Shown here in pieces: positions 1,450 through 59,719 of a DNA stretch of 64,000 nucleotides. The translations under genes were made by a program, and so were the position numbers. This DNA is from Rhodothermales bacterium (GTDB lineage: Bacteria > Bacteroidota > Rhodothermia > Rhodothermales > VXPQ01), in the NCBI GenBank assembly GCA_965223485.1, contig OZ244993.1, positions 1,513,527-1,577,526 of the forward strand. The letters are read 5' to 3'. Within the stretch, counting starts at the first letter, position 1. Each line of letters starts with the position of its first letter. The notes beneath the pieces are model-generated. The model was given only the letters and a program-made list of their open reading frames with translations. It was not told where the DNA came from and ran no database searches.

Positions 1450-3455
1450 CGGCGCACCTACGGCGTATCGCTTTGGCCGGGTGTCTGTTGTGTCCCGCCG
1501 CAGCCGCACAAGAGCCGGATACCACGGCGCTGGGCATTGAGCCGGCGCCGGCCGCGTTGGATTCCCTCGCCCGGACGCCTCTTGATCTCATTGGATTCGG
1601 TGATGCATTGCATGAGGAGACCGGGGGTATATGGGCGCTTTCCGATTCGATTCCGGCGCTCCGGCCCGATATTCATCTTGCCGAGCTTGTTGCTGGTGCG
1701 CCCGGCAGTTTTACCTATCTGTTCGATCGTCCGGGCTGGCCCGATGGCTGGAGTCCGTTCGGGCTTTCTCCCAACACGCGCCCGCTTGTTCTGACCGGCA
1801 TTCCGTTTACGGACATTTTCACCGGGCGCCCGGCCTGGGACCTGATTCCATTGCCCCTGATTGCGCCTCCCCGTCTTGACCCCGCCGGGGTGGGAGGGCG
1901 TCCTGCCGGCGTACACGCGCAACTGAGGCCATACGGGGGACCGGCGCCGCTTACCGAAGCCACCTACTGGCGCGATGGGGAGGGACTCCAGAGTATAGAT
2001 GTTGTGCACGCCCAGCAACGGCGGCGGTCGCTCAGGGGGCAGCCCGGATTGCTGGGGGTGCTCGGGGCCTACGGCGGGCGCGCCACGGATGTCGCGTATC
2101 CGGGCAGCAACCTGACGCGTGGACGCCGCACCACGTTGCGCGTGCGGTATGCACAGCGTGCCTGGTCGGCAGAGGTGCTGTACCTGAGCCAGCGCCGGCG
2201 TGTCGGCGCTCACGGCGGCGTGCTGATCCGGGCCGGTGATCCAAACGCGATCTACCGGAGCGATATTGCCGAAGTCGCCATGCCGCAAGCCGAACGACGC
2301 ATCGTGCGCAACGATTTAGCGGGCGCCGTGCGCGCACGGCTGCTCTCCGCTGGCGTCACTTCCTCGACCATGTACCATTCTACGGAGACATTCCGGTATC
2401 ATAACGCCCTCGACACGCTCGGTACCCGTTCGATGCGCACCGGGGCGCATGTCCGCCAGCCCCTGCTGCGCACTGCCGGGAGCCGACTTGCGATCCGTGT
2501 GGAGGCGTGGTTGGAGCACATGGCGCCGCGAGGAGCGTTCCGGGAATCCGCAGCGCGTCGCTTCGCCATGTATGTTGAGGCCGGCGATTCGCTGCGTCTT
2601 GGGCGGGCCGGTAAGGATGGGCAGGAGAAAAAATGGATGCTGGAGCCGGCGGCAGGCTGGTTTTTTCACCGGAGCGGCGGCCTTGCCGGCTCTGTCCGGT
2701 TGACGCGCCGCGGAACCCGACCCTCCTGGCGTGTTGGCGCCTCGACCGTCAAACCGCGTACGGCCGTCGCATACGATACCGGTTTCGGCGCCCTGCGCGG
2801 AGAACGCGGCGTGCGGCCAGGACGAACCTTTGCGATTCATACCGAAGGATCCGTACATACAGGGCCCTTTGTCATAGCGCTCGGGGCATTCGGGTACCTG
2901 GCCCGTGATCCGGTCGATGTGTTTGTCGCAGGCGACGAAATCGTTACGGCAACGGCGCCGTCGCCGCTCCGACAGGCGGCCCTGTATGCGGATATTGGCT
3001 GGCGCCGTCATGCCCAACGCGGGTTCTACGCGATGGTGCGCCCCACCTTTATGCACATCGTCGAACGGGGCGCCTCGCCTTTGCACAAGCGCCTTGCCGG
3101 TACGTTGCCCCGCTGGTTCGGGAGAGCACGCTTTGGCGTACGGTATACGCTCTTCCAGGGCGACCTGCGCTTCGATCTCTATGCGGAAGGCGCGGCATGG
3201 TCCGCCTTCCACAGCCGGTCGCTGCACGCGCCCACCGGGCTGCTTGCCGTGCCGGAGGCGTCTTCTCTCCTGCTCGGCGCCTCGAACACAGGCAATCTCG
3301 TGGCGGAAATACGTGTGCGTACGGCCCGTCTTTTTTTCGTTTACGACCATGCACCGGCTGGCGCATCGCTTGTGCCGGGGACCATGCTGGCGCCCGTGTA
3401 CCCGCTTCCTGCCGGTCGTTTTCGTTTCGGCGTACACTGGCCGATATTGGGGTAA
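1446..3455 (+). CDS. secreted / outer-membrane-like protein of unknown function
   Basis: 669-aa ORF translationally coupled to the upstream gene. It has a signal-like N-terminus (RRIALAGCLLCPAAAAQ), is Arg/Tyr/Gly-rich, and ends in an aromatic C-terminus (FGVHWPILG) compatible with a beta-barrel. No family recognised. Confidence 0.55.
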   Translation: MTAHLRRIALAGCLLCPAAAAQEPDTTALGIEPAPAALDSLARTPLDLIGFGDALHEETGGIWALSDSIPALRPDIHLAELVAGAPGSFTYLFDRPGWPDGWSPFGLSPNTRPLVLTGIPFTDIFTGRPAWDLIPLPLIAPPRLDPAGVGGRPAGVHAQLRPYGGPAPLTEATYWRDGEGLQSIDVVHAQQRRRSLRGQPGLLGVLGAYGGRATDVAYPGSNLTRGRRTTLRVRYAQRAWSAEVLYLSQRRRVGAHGGVLIRAGDPNAIYRSDIAEVAMPQAERRIVRNDLAGAVRARLLSAGVTSSTMYHSTETFRYHNALDTLGTRSMRTGAHVRQPLLRTAGSRLAIRVEAWLEHMAPRGAFRESAARRFAMYVEAGDSLRLGRAGKDGQEKKWMLEPAAGWFFHRSGGLAGSVRLTRRGTRPSWRVGASTVKPRTAVAYDTGFGALRGERGVRPGRTFAIHTEGSVHTGPFVIALGAFGYLARDPVDVFVAGDEIVTATAPSPLRQAALYADIGWRRHAQRGFYAMVRPTFMHIVERGASPLHKRLAGTLPRWFGRARFGVRYTLFQGDLRFDLYAEGAAWSAFHSRSLHAPTGLLAVPEASSLLLGASNTGNLVAEIRVRTARLFFVYDHAPAGASLVPGTMLAPVYPLPAGRFRFGVHWPILG

Positions 3456-6202: not shown

Positions 6203-7333
6203 ATGCGATTTTCCGTATCCGGCAGGGATTCCCGCACGGAGGCGCGGGCCGGGCAGATTGAAACCGACCACGGCCCGATCGAAACCCCGGTATTCATGCC
6301 GGTGGGCACGCTCGGGAGCGTCAAGGCAGTCGATTCGCGTACGTTGCTCGAGGACGTACGGGCACAGATTGTACTGGGGAACGCCTATCATTTGTATCTG
6401 CGCCCCGGTCCGGCGCTGATCGAACAGGCCGGCGGGTTGCACCGCCTCATGGCGTGGCCCGGACCGATTCTGACCGATTCCGGGGGATATCAGGTTTTTT
6501 CACTGGGCGGCCACCGGACGCTGAGCGAGGAGGGCGTAGCATTCCGCAGTCACCTCGACGGCTCCTCCCATTTCCTTACGCCCGAATCGGCGGTGGATAT
6601 CCAGCGCAGTATCGGGGCGGATATCATGATGGTTCTCGACGAGTGCCCGGCGGCGGACGTGTCGCGGGAATATGCCCGGACCTCGCACGAGATGACCCTG
6701 CGCTGGGCGGCCCGCTGCAAAAAACGCTTTGAAGAAACGGAACCACTGTACGAACACCGTCAGGCGCTCTTTTCCATCGTACAGGGTACGGTGTTTCCGG
6801 ATATCCGGCAGGAGTCGGCCCGGCGGCTTGTGGACATGGACTTTCCGGGGTACGCTATCGGCGGTCTCTCGGTCGGCGAACCCGATCATGAGATGTATGC
6901 AATGGTCGAGGTCGTAAACGAGATACTACCTGCTGACAAGCCGCGTTACCTTATGGGCGTGGGCACTCCCGAAAATCTGCTGGAAAACATAGCGCGCGGC
7001 GTGGATATGTTCGATTGCGTCATGCCCACGCGCAATGGACGCAACGGTATGCTGTTCACGACGGAGGGCATCGTCAACATCCGGAACCTGAAGTGGCGCG
7101 ACGACTTCTCGCCGCTCGATCCCGGCCTGGACGGCTATGTTTCCCGCACATTCTCCAAAGCGTATGTGCGCCATCTTTTTATGGTGAACGAAATCCTCGG
7201 TCTGTACATCGCGTCCGTACAGAACCTGTCTCTGTATACTTCGCTGATGCGCAAGGCGCGCGAAGCCATCCTCGACGGTTCGTTTTTGTCCTGGAAGAAG
7301 GAGATACGCCCCCTCATCAGCCGAAGGCTGTGA
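6203..7333 (+). CDS. tgt: tRNA-guanine transglycosylase (queuine tRNA-ribosyltransferase)
   Basis: GPIETPVFMPVGT, LTDSGGYQVFSL and FDCVMPTRNGRNG motifs. ATG 6203 (MRFSVSG) avoids overlap with the upstream gene. The last 6 codons lie in the first unit of the downstream repeat array. Confidence 0.92.
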   Translation: MRFSVSGRDSRTEARAGQIETDHGPIETPVFMPVGTLGSVKAVDSRTLLEDVRAQIVLGNAYHLYLRPGPALIEQAGGLHRLMAWPGPILTDSGGYQVFSLGGHRTLSEEGVAFRSHLDGSSHFLTPESAVDIQRSIGADIMMVLDECPAADVSREYARTSHEMTLRWAARCKKRFEETEPLYEHRQALFSIVQGTVFPDIRQESARRLVDMDFPGYAIGGLSVGEPDHEMYAMVEVVNEILPADKPRYLMGVGTPENLLENIARGVDMFDCVMPTRNGRNGMLFTTEGIVNIRNLKWRDDFSPLDPGLDGYVSRTFSKAYVRHLFMVNEILGLYIASVQNLSLYTSLMRKAREAILDGSFLSWKKEIRPLISRRL

Positions 7334-52864: not shown

Positions 52865-55800
52865 ATGAAGCATTTCAACAAGGCCGCCGAGGACTATTTC
52901 ATTGAGTTGGCGAGATTACGGGCATCGGGCGCCGGGACCGGGGAACGATCAAGCTATACGGCGCTTGCGACGTTGCTGAACGCCATCGGCGCGACGCTCA
53001 AGCCCAAGGTGTTCTGCGTACAGGAACCTGCGGATCAGGGTGCGGGGCATCCTGATTTTGCCCTCTTTTCGGCCAGACAGATACAAAAGGGACGGCCTAA
53101 AAAAGGGCAAGTACCCGAGCGAGGAGTGGTCGAAGTGAAAGGCCCCGATAAGAACCCTTGGCTAATAGCCGAGGGTTCGCAAGTTGCCAGTTACTGGGAT
53201 CGCTATCGTCTGGTTCTGGTCACCAATACGTACGAATTCGTATTGGTAGGCGAAGACAGCGCAGGACAACGAAAAACTATTGAGGCTTTTGCGCTGGCTG
53301 GCAGCGAGGACGAGTTCAACCGGTTGCTTGGAACTCCCCGGGCCTTCGCTCGCAAAGCAGGCGTAGGACTCGGAGAATATCTTGCCCGGGCACTATCGCA
53401 CCGGGCGCATATTGTTGAGCCGAAGGATTTGGCATGGTTACTTGCCTCGTATGCTCGCGATGCGTTGAGGCGGGTAGAATCGGCGGGAGATACGTCGGCG
53501 CTTGTATCGATTCGCTCAGCCTTGGAAGAGGCGCTGGGCATACAGTTTGAAGATGAGCGTGGCGAGCACTTTTTCCGATCAACCCTTATCCAAACATTGT
53601 TTTATGGTGTCTTCTCTGCCTGGGTGTTGTGGGCGCGGCAAAAGAAGCGGCCTACCGGAGCATTTAATTGGCACGAAGCGGTCTGGCATTTACGCACACC
53701 TGTACTCGAGGCCTTGTTTCGGCAGTTGTCCAGTCGAACGCATTTGCAATCGCTGAATCTTGTAGAAGTACTTGACTGGACGGCGGCTGCACTGGATCGC
53801 GTAGCACGGGATGAATTCCTGGCTCGCTTTGGGGAGGGCGAGGCCGTCCCGTATTTCTACGAGCCGTTTCTCGAAGCCTTCGATCCCAAGCTGCGCAAAC
53901 AGTTGGGCGTCTGGTACACGCCCACCGATGTAGTGCGCTACATGGTTGCACGGGTAGACAAGGCGCTCAAGGACGATCTCGACATTGCCGAGGGGCTGGC
54001 TGCGGAAAATGTCTATGTGCTGGATCCGTGCTGCGGCACCGGAGCCTATCTGGCGGAAGTGCTGCGTCGCATCGCTACCAATCTGGAAAATCGGGGCTTG
54101 GGTGCGCTTACTGGTGCACGGGTCAAGCAGGCGGCGACCGAGCGCGTATTCGGTTTTGAGATCATGCCCGCACCTTTTGTCGTGGCGCATTTACAGGTAG
54201 GTCTGACCATGCAGGAGTTGGATGCGCCGCTTGCCGATGACGCCAACGAACGTCCTGGTGTATTTCTCACCAACGCGTTAACAGGTTGGGAGCCGCATGC
54301 AACGAAGCCGAAACCCATTGCTTTTCCGGAACTGGAGGAGGAACGTGAACGGGCCGAAAATGTGAAGCGGAAAGCCCCAATACTGGTGATTTTGGGTAAT
54401 CCGCCCTACAACGGTTTCGCGGGCATGGCTGTGGAGGAAGAGCGTACGTTGTCCGATGCCTACCGGATAACCAATCGCGTGCGGCGCCCCGAAGGCCAAG
54501 GATTGAATGATCTCTATGTGCGTTTCTTCTGCATGGCGGAGCGCCGCATTCGTAAAGACCGGGGAGTGGTTTGCTTCATTTCCAACTATTCCTGGCTGGC
54601 TGGATTGTCCTTCACGGGAATGCGGGAGCGTTTTCTGGATGTGTTCGATGCGATACGGATCGATAATCTACATGGCGACCGCCGAATATCAGAATATGCA
54701 CCCGATGGGCGAACCAGCGAAACGATTTTCGCGATTCAAGGACAATCGCCCGGTATCAAGGTCGGAACAAGCATCGCTCTGCTTTCCAGATCGGGAGCTG
54801 CTATTAATACTTCAGTAAGTGGATGCGTCCAGTATCGAGATTTCCATCAGGCGAAAGCTGATGAAAGGCGGCAAGCACTGTTGAAGAGTCTTGACACTTC
54901 CGAGATTGATGCTGGCTATGAGAGATTGGAACCTGATTTGCGACTGGGATTGCCGTTCAAGCCGACACCAGTGAGCGAAGACTGGTTCGACTGGCCGGCG
55001 CTGCCGGATCTGTTTCGGGAGTCGTTTCCGGGCGTCAAGAGTGGCCGGGATCCGTTTGTTGTCGATATTGATTTGAACCGTCTGAAGGGACGGATCGAGG
55101 ACTATTTTGATGCAAATCTGAGCCATGAGGAGATTAGACGCCGCTATCCAACTGCAATGCGCAACCCGCGAGAGTACGATGCTCGCACCGTACGGGACAC
55201 GCTTCTCATGCACAGTGGTCCTACAGACAGTGGTTTTCTCCGCTATGCCTTTCGTCCCTTTGACAACCGTTGGCTTTATTGGGAGGATAGAGCCAAACTG
55301 GTTGATCGCCCACGTCCAGAATACAAGCCGCATGTGTTTGAGGGGAATATGTGGTTGTCAACTGCACAGCACCTTCGGAAGGGCGAGCAAGAACCGCAGA
55401 CGTATTGCACGGGATATATCGCTTCTCTACACCTTATAGAGCGTGGCGCCAACATGTTTTCCGCCTATCTACGAGGCGACGATTTCGGGACCGGCGGCAA
55501 CGGAGGAATAGAGCGCCGTCCCAATCTGTCCTATATCGCGCAACGTTATCTGCAACGTCTCGGTATGGGGGTAGAAGACCTTTTCCATCACGTTCTCGCC
55601 ATCCTTCACGATCCGGCTTACCGGGAAGCCAATGCCGGAGCGCTCAGGATGGAATGGCCGCGTATCCCGCTATTGGACTGGCCCGACGGAAATGCCGCTG
55701 ACGCGGCGAAAATGCTTGTTGCATCGGCGGCACGCGGGCGCGAATTGGCCCGACTGCTTGATACCGACACACCGGTTCGGGGTGTTACCCACGGCGCGTT

Positions 55801-56227
55801 GCGCCCGGAGATCGCTGCCCTCGCTGTGCCCGCCACTACCGGTGGCCATAACATGACCGGAGACGACTTTGCCCTGACAATGGGTTGGGGGCATTTCGGA
55901 CAAGGCAGCGTCGTGATGCCCGGCTCGGGCCGTACTACCGAACGGCCTTATACGCCGGAAGAGCGCGCCGCTCTTGGAGATACTGTCGTAGCGTTCAACG
56001 AATCAACCTTTGATATCTACCTGAACCACCACGCCTATTGGCGCAACGTTCCCGCTTCTGTATGGAACTACAAATTGGGCGGCTACCAAGTACTGAAGAA
56101 ATGGCTTTCCTACCGGGAACAGGATGTCCTTGACCGCCCCTTAAAACCACAAGAGGTTCAGCACTTTACCGATACAGCACGGCGGATCGCGGCCATAATA
56201 CTGCTCACGTCATCTTCCCTTTCGTAA
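52865..56227 (+). CDS. fused PD-(D/E)xK-like nuclease / gamma-class N6-adenine DNA methyltransferase / target-recognition protein (Type IIG / helicase-less Type ISP-like)
   Basis: N-terminal GHPDFALFS...RGVVEVKGP. MTase motif I VLDPCCGTGAYL and motif IV LGNPPYNG. C-terminal VWNYKLGGYQVLKKWLSYRE box as in Type ISP/YeeA-like enzymes. No Walker A or DEAH motifs seen. Confidence 0.75.
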   Translation: MKHFNKAAEDYFIELARLRASGAGTGERSSYTALATLLNAIGATLKPKVFCVQEPADQGAGHPDFALFSARQIQKGRPKKGQVPERGVVEVKGPDKNPWLIAEGSQVASYWDRYRLVLVTNTYEFVLVGEDSAGQRKTIEAFALAGSEDEFNRLLGTPRAFARKAGVGLGEYLARALSHRAHIVEPKDLAWLLASYARDALRRVESAGDTSALVSIRSALEEALGIQFEDERGEHFFRSTLIQTLFYGVFSAWVLWARQKKRPTGAFNWHEAVWHLRTPVLEALFRQLSSRTHLQSLNLVEVLDWTAAALDRVARDEFLARFGEGEAVPYFYEPFLEAFDPKLRKQLGVWYTPTDVVRYMVARVDKALKDDLDIAEGLAAENVYVLDPCCGTGAYLAEVLRRIATNLENRGLGALTGARVKQAATERVFGFEIMPAPFVVAHLQVGLTMQELDAPLADDANERPGVFLTNALTGWEPHATKPKPIAFPELEEERERAENVKRKAPILVILGNPPYNGFAGMAVEEERTLSDAYRITNRVRRPEGQGLNDLYVRFFCMAERRIRKDRGVVCFISNYSWLAGLSFTGMRERFLDVFDAIRIDNLHGDRRISEYAPDGRTSETIFAIQGQSPGIKVGTSIALLSRSGAAINTSVSGCVQYRDFHQAKADERRQALLKSLDTSEIDAGYERLEPDLRLGLPFKPTPVSEDWFDWPALPDLFRESFPGVKSGRDPFVVDIDLNRLKGRIEDYFDANLSHEEIRRRYPTAMRNPREYDARTVRDTLLMHSGPTDSGFLRYAFRPFDNRWLYWEDRAKLVDRPRPEYKPHVFEGNMWLSTAQHLRKGEQEPQTYCTGYIASLHLIERGANMFSAYLRGDDFGTGGNGGIERRPNLSYIAQRYLQRLGMGVEDLFHHVLAILHDPAYREANAGALRMEWPRIPLLDWPDGNAADAAKMLVASAARGRELARLLDTDTPVRGVTHGALRPEIAALAVPATTGGHNMTGDDFALTMGWGHFGQGSVVMPGSGRTTERPYTPEERAALGDTVVAFNESTFDIYLNHHAYWRNVPASVWNYKLGGYQVLKKWLSYREQDVLDRPLKPQEVQHFTDTARRIAAIILLTSSSLS

Positions 56228-56276: not shown

Positions 56277-56423
56277 TTACTTCTTTTTAGGCGGAGGAGG
56301 AGGTGGTGGAGGTGGTTTTATCGCAACAGTGGCTTCGGGAGGTGGGGGGCCTGCTCCGAAATCTGTACTTTCTGAAGCATCGGAAGATTTTGGATTCGCA
56401 GGATGTTTTTGTTTATTTGCCAT
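56277..56423 (-). CDS. micro-ORF A (48 aa) ending in K-P9-KKK
   Basis: Hand translation gives MANKQKHPANPKSSDASESTDFGAGPPPPEATVAIKPPPPPPPPPKKK-stop. The ATG lies 3 nt after the stop of the membrane-protein gene. It is a paralogue of micro-ORF B. Confidence 0.5.
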   Translation of the reverse strand: MANKQKHPANPKSSDASESTDFGAGPPPPEATVAIKPPPPPPPPPKKK

Positions 56424-56592
56424 TAGCTACTCCGCAGATTGTTCTTGTTTTACGGGCACTTGGGGAAGGAACTCCACCATTTCGACTTCCGAGACGGAGA
56501 CAAGAATAGCGGTGACCCCCGTTATTGGTTTTCTCTTATTCCCTACTAGCCATTCGCCTTCTTCAATCAGAAAATGACCTTCTTTGGGACGA

Positions 56593-57543
56593 CTAGGTGT
56601 GTAAACCCACCACGTTGTTCAGTGGAATATTGAGGGATTGGATAGGCGTTTGGTATTCCAAGCTGGCGTGTGGTCGATGCCAATTGTATCGGTGCAGCCA
56701 GCGGGGGAGGTACTCGCCGCGCTGTCCGGAGTTGTCGTAGGCGCGTGCATAGGCCCATTCGCGCAGCGCGGTTTGGATGAAGCGTTCGGCTTTGCCGTTG
56801 GTTCGCGGGGTATAGGGCCGCGTTCGGATGTGTTTCATTTTGAGTTGTCGGCACAGTTTTGCGAAGCGTTTCGAGCGGTAGCAGGAGCCGTTGTCGGTCA
56901 TGACGCGGGTGAAGGCGACTCCGAGTGTTCGGAAGTAGCGCAGGGTGTCGACGAGCGCGCTACAGGCGCTTAGAGCGGTCTCGCCGGGCTGGATGCAAGC
57001 GAAGCTCACTCGCGAATGATCGTCGATGGCCACATGCACGTATTCCCATCCGGCTCCTGCGGAGTTCTTTCGTCGGTTACCGGTGACCCGATGGCCCGGA
57101 CGCACGAAACGCCCCAGCCGCTTTACGTCCAGGTGCAGCAGGTCGCCCGGATTCGGGTAGACATAACGGCAAGACGCAACCGGAGGGTCCAGATGGGACA
57201 ATCGGTTCAATCCGGCTTGCTGGGCTATCCGGGCCACTGTGCTGTGCGCCACCGCGGTTCTTCGGCTAATCTCGCGATAGGTGCATCGGGCGCGGCGAAG
57301 GGCCAGGATTGTCTCCCGTTGCGCCTCCGAGGTGCGATGCGGGCAGTTGACAGGACGCGAAGAACCGTCCCGGAGACCTTCTCGTCCCTGCGCGCGATAC
57401 CGGGCCAGCCACTTGTAGGCCGTGCGTACGCTGACCCCTGAGGCCTGCGCGGCTTCCTCGACGCGAAGCCCCTCGTTAACGATGCGGCAAACCAGAATCT
57501 CTCGACCTTTCGGCGTCAATCGGGCATTCTTGTGAATCTTCAT
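56593..57543 (-). CDS. IS481-family transposase
   Basis: MKIHKNARLTPKGREILV... is the HTH N-terminus. The rve integrase core shows the DDE context (LHLDVK, HVAIDDHSR, TDNGSCYRS) and ends YNWHRPHASL. The stop codon lies in the target duplication. Confidence 0.9.
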   Translation of the reverse strand: MKIHKNARLTPKGREILVCRIVNEGLRVEEAAQASGVSVRTAYKWLARYRAQGREGLRDGSSRPVNCPHRTSEAQRETILALRRARCTYREISRRTAVAHSTVARIAQQAGLNRLSHLDPPVASCRYVYPNPGDLLHLDVKRLGRFVRPGHRVTGNRRKNSAGAGWEYVHVAIDDHSRVSFACIQPGETALSACSALVDTLRYFRTLGVAFTRVMTDNGSCYRSKRFAKLCRQLKMKHIRTRPYTPRTNGKAERFIQTALREWAYARAYDNSGQRGEYLPRWLHRYNWHRPHASLEYQTPIQSLNIPLNNVVGLHT

Positions 57544-57628
57544 TCGGCGCTCTCCTTGACTTTCAGTTCGGATATCCCTAATAAATTCGGGCGTCAGGAT
57601 CAAATGAACAACCTATTGAGAGGTCACA
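56598..57628 (-). mobile_element. IS481-family insertion sequence (about 1031 bp) with 6-bp target duplication ACTAGG
   Basis: Imperfect terminal inverted repeats start TGTGTAAACC... (left) and TGTGACCTC... (right, reverse complement). ACTAGG is present at 56592-56597 and 57629-57634, matching the NCTAGN target of IS481. Confidence 0.85.
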
Positions 57629-58196
57629 ACTAGGCCATTCTGTAGGCCAGCCATAAAGACGTCTTCCGCCATTCAGATGTAACACAACGTAGCAATTCGA
57701 AAGCCTGGAGAAGGCAGAATACCATTCCGATGGGTAGGAAGTCTCTTTGGTAAAATTCCAATTTCGAAGACGACAATGGATTGTATCATTATTCATAAGA
57801 TAGACAGTTGACAGACCGAGTATTATGGCAAAAATAAATGATACAGAAAATACCAAAGATGTGTTCCATGAATCTATTTCAGTTATAGTACCAAGGATCC
57901 AATCAATTATAGTACCGATAACCCAAAACATAGTAGATATAATTATAGTAAAAATAGCAGCTTGGATAATTTGTTCGAATTCACTAGGTCGTGGATGTGA
58001 AGTGAATAAATAAAAAACACTAACAGTCACAAATCCCGGTAAAATAAACAACAAGAATTTTATAGATTCTTCGGAAAATAACCAATCCATATTTTTGTCC
58101 AATATTTTATATCATTATAATGCTAACTAATCTGAAATCGACATTGGTGATCAAATACGATGCTGTTTTCTCTATCACTGCGTAGATGACACACCT

Positions 58197-58334
58197 TTAT
58201 TTCTTCGCCGGCGGCGGCGGCGGCGGCGGCGGTGGCGGCTTTGTCGTATTAGCATTGTTATGTGATAAACCTCTGGTCGAAGTGCTTTCTGTAATCGGTT
58301 GACGGCCAGGAGGAGGATTTTGTTCTTTAGCCAT
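58197..58334 (-). CDS. micro-ORF B (45 aa) ending in K-P9-AKK
   Basis: Hand translation gives MAKEQNPPPGRQPITESTSTRGLSQHNNANTTKPPPPPPPPPAKK-stop. It ends about 94 nt upstream of the membrane-protein start. Confidence 0.5.
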   Translation of the reverse strand: MAKEQNPPPGRQPITESTSTRGLSHNNANTTKPPPPPPPPPPAKK

Positions 58335-58603
58335 GATGTCTACTTTTTTGGATTTTGAGAATATGCGCCCGCTTCCTTAGCCATGTTTCCATTGCCAGTC
58401 GCAACGAGTTATAGCTAATGTGCTCCTGAGCTGGTTCCTTTAAAAAAAAATTCTTTTCGGAGCATTTCCTCACCCGGAACCACGCTTGCCCTGCTCCGTC
58501 CCAAGCCTCATCATACCGTTGCCTATCCCATTCTGCCGGCCTGCGGTATGACCGGGGATAGGGCGCCGCAGAGAAAACGTATACGCAATGTAGAGGAAGT
58601 TCG

Positions 58604-59719
58604 ATGCCGCCCGTACACTACCAGCAAGGAGGATTTCCGCCCGAAGATCGGCTGGACTGGCCGAAATTAATCCCGCTGATCGGCCCCGCTGCCGCTGCCG
58701 TTGCGCGTTATGACGGAGTACTTGCAGCTATCCCGAACCCCGATGTGTTGCTGTCGCCGCTGACCACGCAAGAGGCAGTGCTGTCGTCTAAAATCGAAGG
58801 CACGCGGGCCACGATAGGCGAAGTCCTGGAGTTCGAGGCCGGGCAAAAGGTGGATTCGCCGGAACTCCGCAACGACATCGAAGAAATCCTCAACTATCGC
58901 GTGGCTATGCGCGGTGCGGCGAAGATGTTGCAGGAGTTGCTCCTCTCAATGCGGGTTGTTCTTGAGGCGCATCGGGTGTTGCTGGACGGGGTCCGTGGCC
59001 GCAACAAGGGGCCCGGCGAACTGCGGCGCATTCCCAACTGGATCGGAAGACCTGGATCCACGATGGAGAACGCTACCTATGTTCCCATCGGCGCAGATCA
59101 ATTACCCGAGGCTATGTCCCGGTGGGAACGCTATATCCACGAGGATGCGCCGGATCGGCTCATTCAACTCGCCATCCTGCATGCGGAATTCGAGGCGCTG
59201 CATCCGTTTCTGGACGGCAACGGGCGCTTGGGGCGTATGCTGGTACCGCTGTTTCTATGGCAACATAGCCTTATTCGCCAACCTGTGTTCTATATCAGCG
59301 GTTACTTCGAGGCGCGACGGGAAAGTTATTATGAAGGACTGCTTGCGATTTCTCGCGACGACAATTGGACAGGCTGGTGCCAACTGTTCCTTGAGGCGGT
59401 GCGATTTCAGGCGGAAGATAACTTGACGAAGGCGCAGGGAATTCTTGACCTGTATGAGAAAACGACACGGCGACTTAATGTCCTTACCCGTTCTCCGAAC
59501 GCCATGGATGCTTTGCGCTGGTTGTTCGGACGCCCCATTTTCAGGAGTGCGGACTTTGCTGCGACTGCGGGTCTGCCGAGGCGGACGGCACAGCGACTGC
59601 TTGGCGTGTTGCATGAGGAAGGTATCCTGCGGCAAATCACTACGGGCAACGGTAGGCGGGCAACCATTTTTGGTTTTCCGGCCCTTCTGAACCTTGCAGA
59701 AGGGCGAAAGGTGCTCTGA
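58604..59719 (+). CDS. Fic-family protein (DUF4172-type N-terminus, Fic core, C-terminal wHTH)
   Basis: Fic motif HPFLDGNGRLGRM. An inhibitory-helix-like SSKIEGT (S-x-x-x-E-G) lies upstream of the core. Confidence 0.9.
   Translation: MPPVHYQQGGFPPEDRLDWPKLIPLIGPAAAAVARYDGVLAAIPNPDVLLSPLTTQEAVLSSKIEGTRATIGEVLEFEAGQKVDSPELRNDIEEILNYRVAMRGAAKMLQELLLSMRVVLEAHRVLLDGVRGRNKGPGELRRIPNWIGRPGSTMENATYVPIGADQLPEAMSRWERYIHEDAPDRLIQLAILHAEFEALHPFLDGNGRLGRMLVPLFLWQHSLIRQPVFYISGYFEARRESYYEGLLAISRDDNWTGWCQLFLEAVRFQAEDNLTKAQGILDLYEKTTRRLNVLTRSPNAMDALRWLFGRPIFRSADFAATAGLPRRTAQRLLGVLHEEGILRQITTGNGRRATIFGFPALLNLAEGRKVL

Follow-up and report, generated by a model that had tools for sequence, protein, structure and literature searches.

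A DUF6338 membrane protein gene and proline-tailed microprotein genes form a conserved pair across bacterial phyla

The micro-ORFs and the split DUF6338 gene

The subject of this analysis is a stretch of 64,000 nucleotides (nt) from a Rhodothermales bacterium (assembly GCA_965223485.1, contig OZ244993.1, positions 1,513,527 to 1,577,526), which is called the window throughout and from whose first letter its positions are counted. The minus strand of the window carries a gene for a membrane protein of the DUF6338 family, which has been split by an insertion sequence (IS), and two very short open reading frames (ORFs), A and B, on either side of this gene. The products of both micro-ORFs end in an uninterrupted run of prolines followed by a short basic end. 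These micro-ORFs are genuine protein-coding genes under purifying selection, and their association with DUF6338 is near-obligate.

ORF A (48 amino acids, 56277..56423, minus strand) occupies the position downstream of the membrane protein gene and ends in AIK-P9-KKK-stop. Its letters are identical to those read in the first-pass annotation, and its start was also placed correctly there: the ATG follows the DUF6338 stop codon by 3 nt (TAG-CTA-ATG), with a GGAG 7 nt before it. ORF B (45 amino acids, 58197..58334, minus strand) is the upstream copy. It encodes a cationic, Pro-rich microprotein that reads MAKEQNPPPGRQPITESTSTRGLSHNNANTTK-P10-AKK-stop in full (MAKEQNPPPGRQ...TTK-P10-AKK). The existence of ORF B had been recognized, but the run comprises ten prolines instead of the nine that were counted, and the 'SQHNN' of the earlier reading is in truth 'SHNN'. 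The stop codon of ORF B lies 106 nt before the conserved M-D-W start of the DUF6338 gene; a spacing of 94 nt, as first given, holds only for a TTG further upstream.

The proline codons are CCA and CCT plus one CCG in ORF A, and CCG plus one CCA in ORF B, so that the clean division of codons described before is correct except for one codon on each side. Two matches to the pattern AAR-(CCN)9 exist in the window, both of them in this module; the count expected from 100 dinucleotide shuffles is 0.00. In all six frames of the 64 kb, the tails of ORF A and ORF B are the only runs of at least five prolines.

Upstream of ORF B lies a stub of 14 codons (MAKEAGAYSQNPKK-stop, 58340..58384, minus strand). 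It is present as described, but it does not prove a local duplication, as it is not conserved as an ORF: in the Rhodothermales alignment, it is in frame with B in locus L009, out of frame in L001 and deleted in L002, and the TAG that closes it in the window was created by a 1-nt deletion. The stub probably represents 5' leader sequence or what is left of an alternative start further upstream. Further upstream of ORF B, the columns of the block GGAACCA-N17-CTATAAC (58408..58438, minus strand) are invariant in the four-way Rhodothermales alignment. This block looks like a promoter, possibly of the extracytoplasmic function (ECF) type. A scan with the sigma-70 consensus gave no match on the minus strand, and the consensus scans for promoters and terminators were uninformative.

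The DUF6338 gene runs from an ATG at 58090 to a stop codon at 56429-56427 and is interrupted by an IS481-family element of 1031 bp (56598..57628, minus strand). Its 5' part (codons 1-154, 57629..58090, minus strand) encodes three predicted transmembrane (TM) helices, an amphipathic helix and the start of an Sm-like domain, while the 3' part (56427..56597, minus strand) encodes the rest of the Sm-like beta-barrel and an acidic C-terminal tail up to the TAG stop. The element has inverted repeats (TGTGACC.../TGTGTAA...) and is flanked by a 6-bp target duplication, CCTAGT, at 57634-57629 and 56597-56592. Its transposase starts with an ATG at 57543 and contains the domains LZ_Tnp_IS481, rve and rve_3, and the element is present as a single copy within the window. 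The transposase ORF passes the right inverted repeat, and its TAG stop codon is supplied by the duplicated CCTAGT target site (56593-57634).

When the element is removed in silico, the restored protein counts 208 amino acids and not 212, as had been estimated. It matches the Pfam family DUF6338 (PF19865) with 53.5 bits (cut-off 26.5) and E=3e-14 over model positions 11-202 of 205, that is, in full length and above the gathering cut-off, in line with the earlier label 'DUF6338-like'. The guanine-cytosine (GC) content of the gene is ~31-39%, against 61% for the window. One search returned 514 DUF6338 homologues, and the family comprises 1413 clusters at 50% identity.

Conservation in close relatives

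Metagenome-assembled genomes of other Rhodothermales (loci L001-L009) contain intact DUF6338 genes with 63-84% identity. Both micro-ORFs remain in frame there and have 8, 9 or 10 prolines; for ORF B, this is seen in L001, L002, L004 and L009 (8-10 prolines). The order Fic - B - DUF6338 - A - Type ISP is kept in four loci. In L001 the trio of B, DUF6338 and A sits elsewhere, which indicates that the three genes travel together. A gene for a 368-amino-acid protein with a helix-turn-helix and an M78 domain is found near the modules of L001-L004.

Between the window and L001, ORF B shows 17 synonymous and 3 non-synonymous differences (pS 0.53, pN 0.03, pN/pS ~0.06); it is under strong purifying selection. 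In ORF A, the constraint is mainly on the C-terminal half (PPPPEATVAIK-P9-KKK), while the N-terminal half evolves fast; in L006 and L007, a frameshift has removed this N-terminal half and the tail has been kept. The upstream copy, at the position of B, is confined to Rhodothermales among the loci examined. Against the hidden Markov model (HMM) of the whole microprotein family, ORF B scores 38.1 bits, a value equalled by none of 200 shuffles in which the tail was kept. ORF A reaches 21.5 bits with the general model, where 11 of 200 such shuffles do as well, and 20.1 bits with the model of a second sequence type (type II, see below), where 0 of 300 do. From these scores ORF A is taken to be a divergent member of the family, and ORF B is the better conserved of the two (38 bits, pN/pS ~0.06).

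Pairing with DUF6338 across phyla

For a comparison beyond the order, one genome per species was scanned, which yielded 80 loci of this DUF6338 subfamily. They stem from Acidobacteriota, Chloroflexota/Dehalococcoidia, Nitrospirota, Nitrospinota, Binatia, Alpha- and Gammaproteobacteria, Thermodesulfobacteriota, Planctomycetota, Leptospira and Bacteroidota. A Pro-rich micro-ORF on the same strand directly follows the DUF6338 gene in 78 of the 80 loci. Of the two exceptions, one contig ends 77 nt past the gene (L011) and the other locus, from Rhodothermales, has its micro-ORF upstream (L062). The co-occurrence that the first-pass annotation had proposed as a test has therefore come out positive, and the micro-ORFs and the membrane protein gene do form a module. 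Across phyla, the conserved unit is DUF6338 followed by a downstream microprotein, which is the position of A.

The spacing from the DUF6338 stop to the start of the micro-ORF is +3 nt in 28 loci, -8 nt (an overlap) in 11 and +4 nt in 6. A GGAG precedes the ATG, commonly 6-9 nt upstream, in most of the loci as listed. Since the micro-ORF is in the frame of DUF6338 in just 41 of 77 loci, and since spacings of -8 and +4 nt are common, read-through of the stop codon, which would fuse DUF6338 to the tail, was rejected as a general mechanism.

The consensus of the family HMM is MAKEPNPPPSRR...GVSPKP...VK-P9-KK, with the tail [K/R]-(9-residue Pro block)-K-K; in the family alignment, the N-terminal motifs MAKEPxPPPS and GVSPKP are conserved as well. 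The type II sequences read MSKKxSNPPPP...G(I/V)NxGxNxNPPPPxN(V/I)RPxPPPxPPPK(R/K) and occur mainly in Gammaproteobacteria, Thermodesulfobacteriota and related lineages. The microproteins carry a mean net charge of +6.6 (positive in 72/72), consist of 35% Pro and are nearly devoid of hydrophobic residues. A typical family member is encoded on the same strand by an ORF of ~27-60 codons whose start, preceded by a Shine-Dalgarno sequence of its own, lies within a few nt of the DUF6338 stop. ORF A shows all of these features; ORF B departs from the positional rule, lying 106 nt upstream of DUF6338. Both possess the tail [K/R]-(Pro-rich block, modal length 9)-[K/R][K/R]-stop, as K-P9-KKK in A and K-P10-AKK in B, and both resemble the family HMM beyond the composition of this tail.

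In 45 of 72 loci, exactly 9 residues lie between the basic residues on either side, and this length is retained where the prolines are interrupted (P5-A-P3, P5-L-P3). This points to a length ruler rather than to a slippery repeat, and a run of fixed length that is conserved suggests a structural role as a polyproline-II ruler. Three or more different Pro codons are used in the tail in 64 of 78 loci, and their third positions vary freely. The antisense poly-Gly frame is without a start codon in 41 of the 78 loci, and elsewhere its length varies erratically; an antisense poly-Gly ORF was therefore rejected as a real gene. It is thus the peptide that is conserved and not a microsatellite, as had been argued from the codons of the window, and the same conclusion follows from the pN/pS of ORF B (~0.06).

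These data also bear on the notion that no gene is present at all and that the sequence is a C-rich RNA or DNA element, such as a Rho-loading site or a slippery repeat, or that the antisense frame is the real one. It is true that (CCN)9 is C-rich and that the run length differs (8-10) among close relatives. Every change in length is in frame, however, and the start codon, the Shine-Dalgarno sequence and the KK-stop are conserved while third codon positions are free. The sense frame is under purifying selection and its antisense counterpart lacks conservation; relatives of the peptides have also been detected by mass spectrometry (see below). This notion is already contradicted, and hardly any weight is left to it.

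On a Paludisphaera plasmid, where DUF6338 identity has dropped to 38%, the pairing still holds, and RefSeq has no annotation for the micro-ORF. It is also found in distant, long-form homologues, whose annotated C-terminal extension is overlapped by the micro-ORF in another frame. Examples are the homologues of 264-300 amino acids in L126 (179-973) and L127 (1501-2403), whose extensions overlap a micro-ORF ending in ...SPPPPPKK...; these annotated extensions may be over-called ORFs. In L128, two tandem degenerate micro-ORFs are located past the DUF6338 end at 2352, the second of which starts with MAKEAGN... and resembles the stub of the window. In L018 (3001-3600, Terriglobia), the matched DUF6338 frame ends early, at 3153, with an undamaged micro-ORF downstream of it, possibly another instance in which the membrane protein gene has been inactivated.

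Annotation status and an experimental precedent

The micro-ORFs have no match in Pfam, NCBIfam, PHROG or PADLOC, and no curated family or defence model covers them. When DUF6338 was scanned along with A and B against PADLOC, PHROGs and NCBIfam, nothing of use emerged for any of the three. Ten exact micro-ORF sequences were absent from a collection of 15 billion proteins, and in the metagenome loci the gene callers had left the position of the micro-ORF empty.

An experimental precedent exists in P. stutzeri ATCC 14405, where the DUF6338 gene Pstu14405_RS12030 is followed by genes for the Pro-rich proteins SEP1, SEP5 and SEP2 (PMC10433244). These SEPs were found by digest-free proteomics, with a coverage of 98-100% and 44-114 peptide-spectrum matches for SEP1 and SEP5, and they were well expressed under both culture conditions tested (PMC10433244). 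The authors considered them to be confined to P. stutzeri and possibly to be de novo genes (PMC10433244). The operon resembles the module described here in that DUF6338 is followed by tandem Pro-rich proteins of fewer than 50 amino acids ending in P4-5-K-[KR]; it differs in its three tandem copies and its shorter proline runs. With the type II HMM, SEP5 scores 24.6 bits and SEP1 17.8 bits, and 0 of 300 shuffles with the tail kept reach these values. SEP1 and SEP5 are thus members of the family, and translation of the family has been shown experimentally, with this operon as the sole proof of that kind. While the SEPs were judged to be species-specific, the data presented here show conservation across phyla. 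The claim that the layout is undescribed accordingly stands in part: DUF6338 with Pro-rich small proteins had already been reported in that work (PMC10433244), but the conservation of the family was not recognized there. A microprotein family that extends over many phyla has hence previously gone unrecognized, having been seen once experimentally and then judged species-specific.

The same proteomics data speak to the proposal that the micro-ORFs encode precursors of ribosomally synthesised and post-translationally modified peptides (RiPPs). The peptides are short and have a conserved layout of N-terminal and C-terminal parts, as such precursors would, and the P. stutzeri authors mention biosynthetic gene clusters as another place where the DUF6338 domain is found (PMC10433244). 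On the other hand, RiPP precursors are accompanied by a co-conserved modifying enzyme or protease, and neither of these, nor a transporter, is conserved near the micro-ORFs; moreover, mass spectrometry covers 98-100% of the SEP sequences. This proposal of the first-pass annotation is consequently disfavoured and appears highly improbable.

The same tail beside other membrane proteins

In a reverse test, the exact DNA pattern for K-P9-K-K-stop was searched for, which gave 19 metagenome loci. DUF6338 lies directly upstream in 6 of them, and 3 are uninformative. In 8 of the 19, the neighbour is an unrelated protein of ~160 amino acids, read as a 2-TM protein, with 309 homologues and no Pfam domain; wherever the source is named, it is from Acidobacteriota. 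The micro-ORF that follows or overlaps the gene of this partner ends in ...(S/G)WPP(M/I)PKPxPPPP-K-P9-KK or a degenerate form of it (loci L097, L102, L105-L108, L110, L113 and L116-L122; e.g. L105, oriented 6607-7193). A SLATT domain, tentatively assigned to this Acidobacteriota 2-TM partner, remained unconfirmed by any Pfam match. In two further loci (L098, L103), MTDPGQRQGTPKPPPMPPKPAPSPPLPKREYREQGPPRK-P9-KK-stop comes after the gene of a 191-amino-acid protein, which was read as having an N-terminal TM helix and a beta-rich domain and matches no family other than, weakly, EACC1 (0.043). DUF6338 is therefore not the sole neighbour of the K-P9-KK tail, which is found again next to other small membrane proteins.

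Nine to ten consecutive prolines form a very strong stall motif whose translation depends on elongation factor P (EF-P). K-P9-KK microproteins might constitute a general class of EF-P-dependent 'translation-capacity fuses', i.e. labile peptides, difficult to translate, that plug or restrain small membrane effectors of the DUF6338, 2-TM and 1-TM families. If polyproline translation failed, through loss of EF-P, proline starvation or takeover by a phage, the peptide would disappear; the membrane protein would then be set free and cause dormancy or abortive infection. Such a generalization is rather unlikely to hold.

Genomic context and mobility

In the window, the module is located between a Type ISP/IIG restriction-modification (RM) enzyme (52865-56227) and a SoFic protein (58604-59719). 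With PADLOC-DB 2.0, neither DUF6338 nor A or B gave a match at E<=1, while these two neighbours (Type IIG/ISP RM, SoFic) did. The defence-island setting that was initially described is real for the window and its close relatives (Type ISP RM, SoFic), but it does not hold in general. Among the 144 proteins encoded directly next to the module in 77 loci, amidohydrolases, enolase-superfamily enzymes and epimerases predominate, with few RM or AAA_15/OLD-type proteins, and an estimated ~8% of these immediate neighbours look defence-related. Any other gene is shared by 8 of the 80 loci at most. The GC content of DUF6338 is ~10 points under that of its flanks in 66 of the 77 loci, and in none does it exceed the flanks by more than 5 points. 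No DUF6338 and no K-P9-KK-stop were found in phage records and viral contigs. The sole viral hint is BFVD A0A8S5PTE5, an uncharacterised siphovirus protein of 197 amino acids that aligns with the DUF6338 model over the full length of this model (E=1e-7). Taken together, the module behaves as a mobile accessory unit and is not demonstrably a defence system.

Some loci have additional genes. On the Paludisphaera borealis plasmid PALBO2 (L096, 2466-6835), an ATP-binding protein and an S8 peptidase are encoded directly upstream of DUF6338 and its micro-ORF, with a tyrosine recombinase and a ParDE pair nearby. In L089 and L091-L094, a gene for a Peptidase_M78 protein of 120 amino acids (ImmA/IrrE-like) overlaps the DUF6338 start by 4 nt.

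The position in the window, between a Type ISP RM enzyme and SoFic, is one argument for regarding the microproteins as effectors that act against ribosomes or chaperones, in the manner of oncocin, Bac7 and apidaecin, with DUF6338 as exporter, immunity protein or executor. Their composition (35% Pro, net charge +6.6) fits this idea, and the type II tail RPSPPPAPPPKR loosely recalls the C-terminus of apidaecin. Proline-rich antimicrobial peptides are however secreted and contain PRP or PxP-Arg repeats. In the micro-ORFs, no signal peptide was noted on reading and no PRP repeats or aromatic anchors are present; lysine prevails over arginine and aromatic residues are nearly absent. A protein with three TM helices and an Sm-like domain lacks transporter features, a natural fusion with DUF6338 (see below) suits a partner more than a cargo, and healthy P. 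stutzeri cells contain the peptides in abundance, with good expression in both of the culture conditions tested (PMC10433244). The earlier idea of a ribosome-targeting toxin with its exporter is thus disfavoured, and an effector role is considered quite unlikely.

Predicted structure of DUF6338

In the AlphaFold2 (AF2) prediction, three long TM helices are joined by an interfacial helix and by a further helix that leads into a five- or six-stranded barrel; the predicted local distance difference test (pLDDT) score is 75, or 84 for a second model. When the barrel was searched with Foldseek, archaeal SmAP and spliceosomal Sm proteins were the top matches (target TM-score 0.75-0.84, E ~1e-4). The hallmark of the Sm/LSm fold, an N-terminal helix followed by a strongly bent five-stranded beta-sheet, is present in the model, at a moderate pLDDT of 75. 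From the charge distribution in the restored sequence (positive-inside rule), the Sm-like barrel would face the cytoplasm. The invariant residues of DUF6338 are rich in Trp, Tyr and Phe and include the motif YGWPxEWP, and the extreme C-terminus is net negative in 53 of 72 proteins, which makes its charge complementary to that of the cationic microproteins.

A candidate physical link is provided by the natural fusion protein P0274, which is found on 12 contigs and in which DUF6338 is joined to a complete microprotein (...EEPNPSPPSQ...TRP8AKKIV). An internal start, GGAG-N9-GTG, has been retained in its gene. In the AF2 model of P0274, the linker has a pLDDT of 48-54 and the poly-Pro tail one of 77-82, with almost no other rows of the alignment covering the tail. 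The confident tail is suggestive of a physical link between the two parts, though not decisive.

Comparison with known systems

Proline-codon leader ORFs and arrest peptides (MgtP of mgtCBR; ApdA and ApdP of the RAPP type; SecM and MifM) are likewise very short and carry an arrest motif or consecutive prolines towards the C-terminus; their translation depends on EF-P or on the state of the ribosome (PMC5299641, PMC10987492, PMC12992588). These ORFs lie upstream of the gene that they control and act in cis. The micro-ORF, by contrast, lies downstream in 78 of 80 loci without a conserved gene after it, its N-terminus is constrained and its peptide accumulates. A cis-acting sensor had nonetheless been put forward for this locus, in the form of leader and trailer peptides that respond to EF-P or translation status. 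In such a scheme, what counts is that the Pro run is translated: stalling dependent on EF-P or on proline would decide what becomes of the operon mRNA or regulate the expression of DUF6338, and the released peptide would have no function. The strong stalling of 9-10 prolines without EF-P, the location of the Rhodothermales copy B upstream of DUF6338 and the tight coupling to DUF6338 can all be cited in its favour. It is not easily reconciled with the downstream position and the missing further gene, with the conservation of MAKEPxPPPS and GVSPKP and the pN/pS of ~0.06 in ORF B, or with a 9-residue length that survives Ala, Leu or Ser breaks that might weaken stalling. The natural fusion P0274 and the abundance of full-length peptides in P. 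stutzeri (PMC10433244) likewise speak against it. The scheme is disfavoured and, in our estimation, unlikely.

Small proteins such as AcrZ, MgtS, KdpF and CcoM share with the microproteins a length of fewer than 50 amino acids, a gene located with or near that of a membrane partner, and the fact that they were overlooked by annotation. They are hydrophobic and consist of a single TM helix, however, while the products of the micro-ORFs are hydrophilic, polycationic and probably of polyproline-II type, without a TM helix. They would therefore have to bind to a cytoplasmic domain. A basic-flanked polyproline-II ligand and a small barrel with invariant Trp, Tyr and Phe, as proposed here, recall the SH3, WW, GYF, EVH1 and profilin binders. 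Sm and SH3 folds are related small beta-barrels, but the DUF6338 domain matches Sm/LSm and not SH3, and binding is in this case a proposal.

MscS-family channels also combine three TM helices with a subsequent Sm-like beta domain, an architecture that in MscS assembles as a heptamer. DUF6338 is much smaller, lacks the C-terminal alpha-beta domain and has no MS_channel match in Pfam. A homology to MscS was rejected; apart from the missing Pfam match, the only similarity was an insignificant one (E=0.05) to the N-terminal or outer TM helices of YnaI.

Type II toxin-antitoxin and abortive infection systems with a membrane effector are likewise composed of two small, co-directional and tightly spaced genes, the larger of which is sometimes inactivated. 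The module shares with them the adjacent, co-directional genes and a mobile, patchy distribution, together with a low GC content, variable neighbourhoods and a copy on a plasmid. Unlike type II antitoxins, the microprotein has no DNA-binding domain, no PADLOC model covers the module and most of the loci examined lie outside defence islands. For a toxicity that would be neutralised by the partner, the IS disruption, the natural fusion and the confident AF2 tail are no more than indirect hints.

A candidate partnership

The reading that we favour, with somewhat more confidence than doubt, is that the window contains an IS-inactivated copy of a widespread mobile module in which the microprotein is a trans-acting physical partner of DUF6338. 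The microprotein is translated and probably binds physically to the membrane protein. The first component of the module would be DUF6338, with three TM helices and a cytoplasmic Sm-like beta-barrel bearing an acidic tail. The second would be one or more strongly cationic microproteins of ~40 amino acids, with ~35% Pro, that end in [K/R]-(nine-residue Pro-rich block)-K-K. The rigid polyproline-II tail, ~28 Å long and bracketed by lysines, could dock onto the aromatic-rich Sm-like domain or onto the acidic tail. More speculatively, the microprotein may be a neutralising or gating (antitoxin-like) subunit of a membrane protein that would form rings. As nine consecutive prolines need EF-P, the supply of microprotein could, again speculatively, report on the translation capacity of the cell.

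Several observations weigh against this partnership or parts of it. The N-terminal half of ORF A is poorly constrained, and SEP2 resembles the family in its tail alone. The Sm fold is not known to bind polyproline, and the high pLDDT of the P0274 tail might mirror the local geometry of a rigid poly-Pro segment. The antitoxin-like and EF-P-sensing parts in particular are at odds with the missing PADLOC match, the lack of phage copies and the mostly metabolic neighbours.

Significance

The microproteins fill an annotation gap: a family tied to a protein family of ~1400 clusters escapes Pfam, NCBIfam, PHROGs and PADLOC and is missed by gene callers. The 'de novo genes' of P. stutzeri become members of an old and widespread family, and DUF6338 gains a candidate partner. 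The occurrence of the same tail near two unrelated small membrane proteins hints at a general design principle. Few sequences are harder for ribosomes to translate than a run of about nine prolines, which may link the membrane protein to EF-P or to the translation status of the cell.

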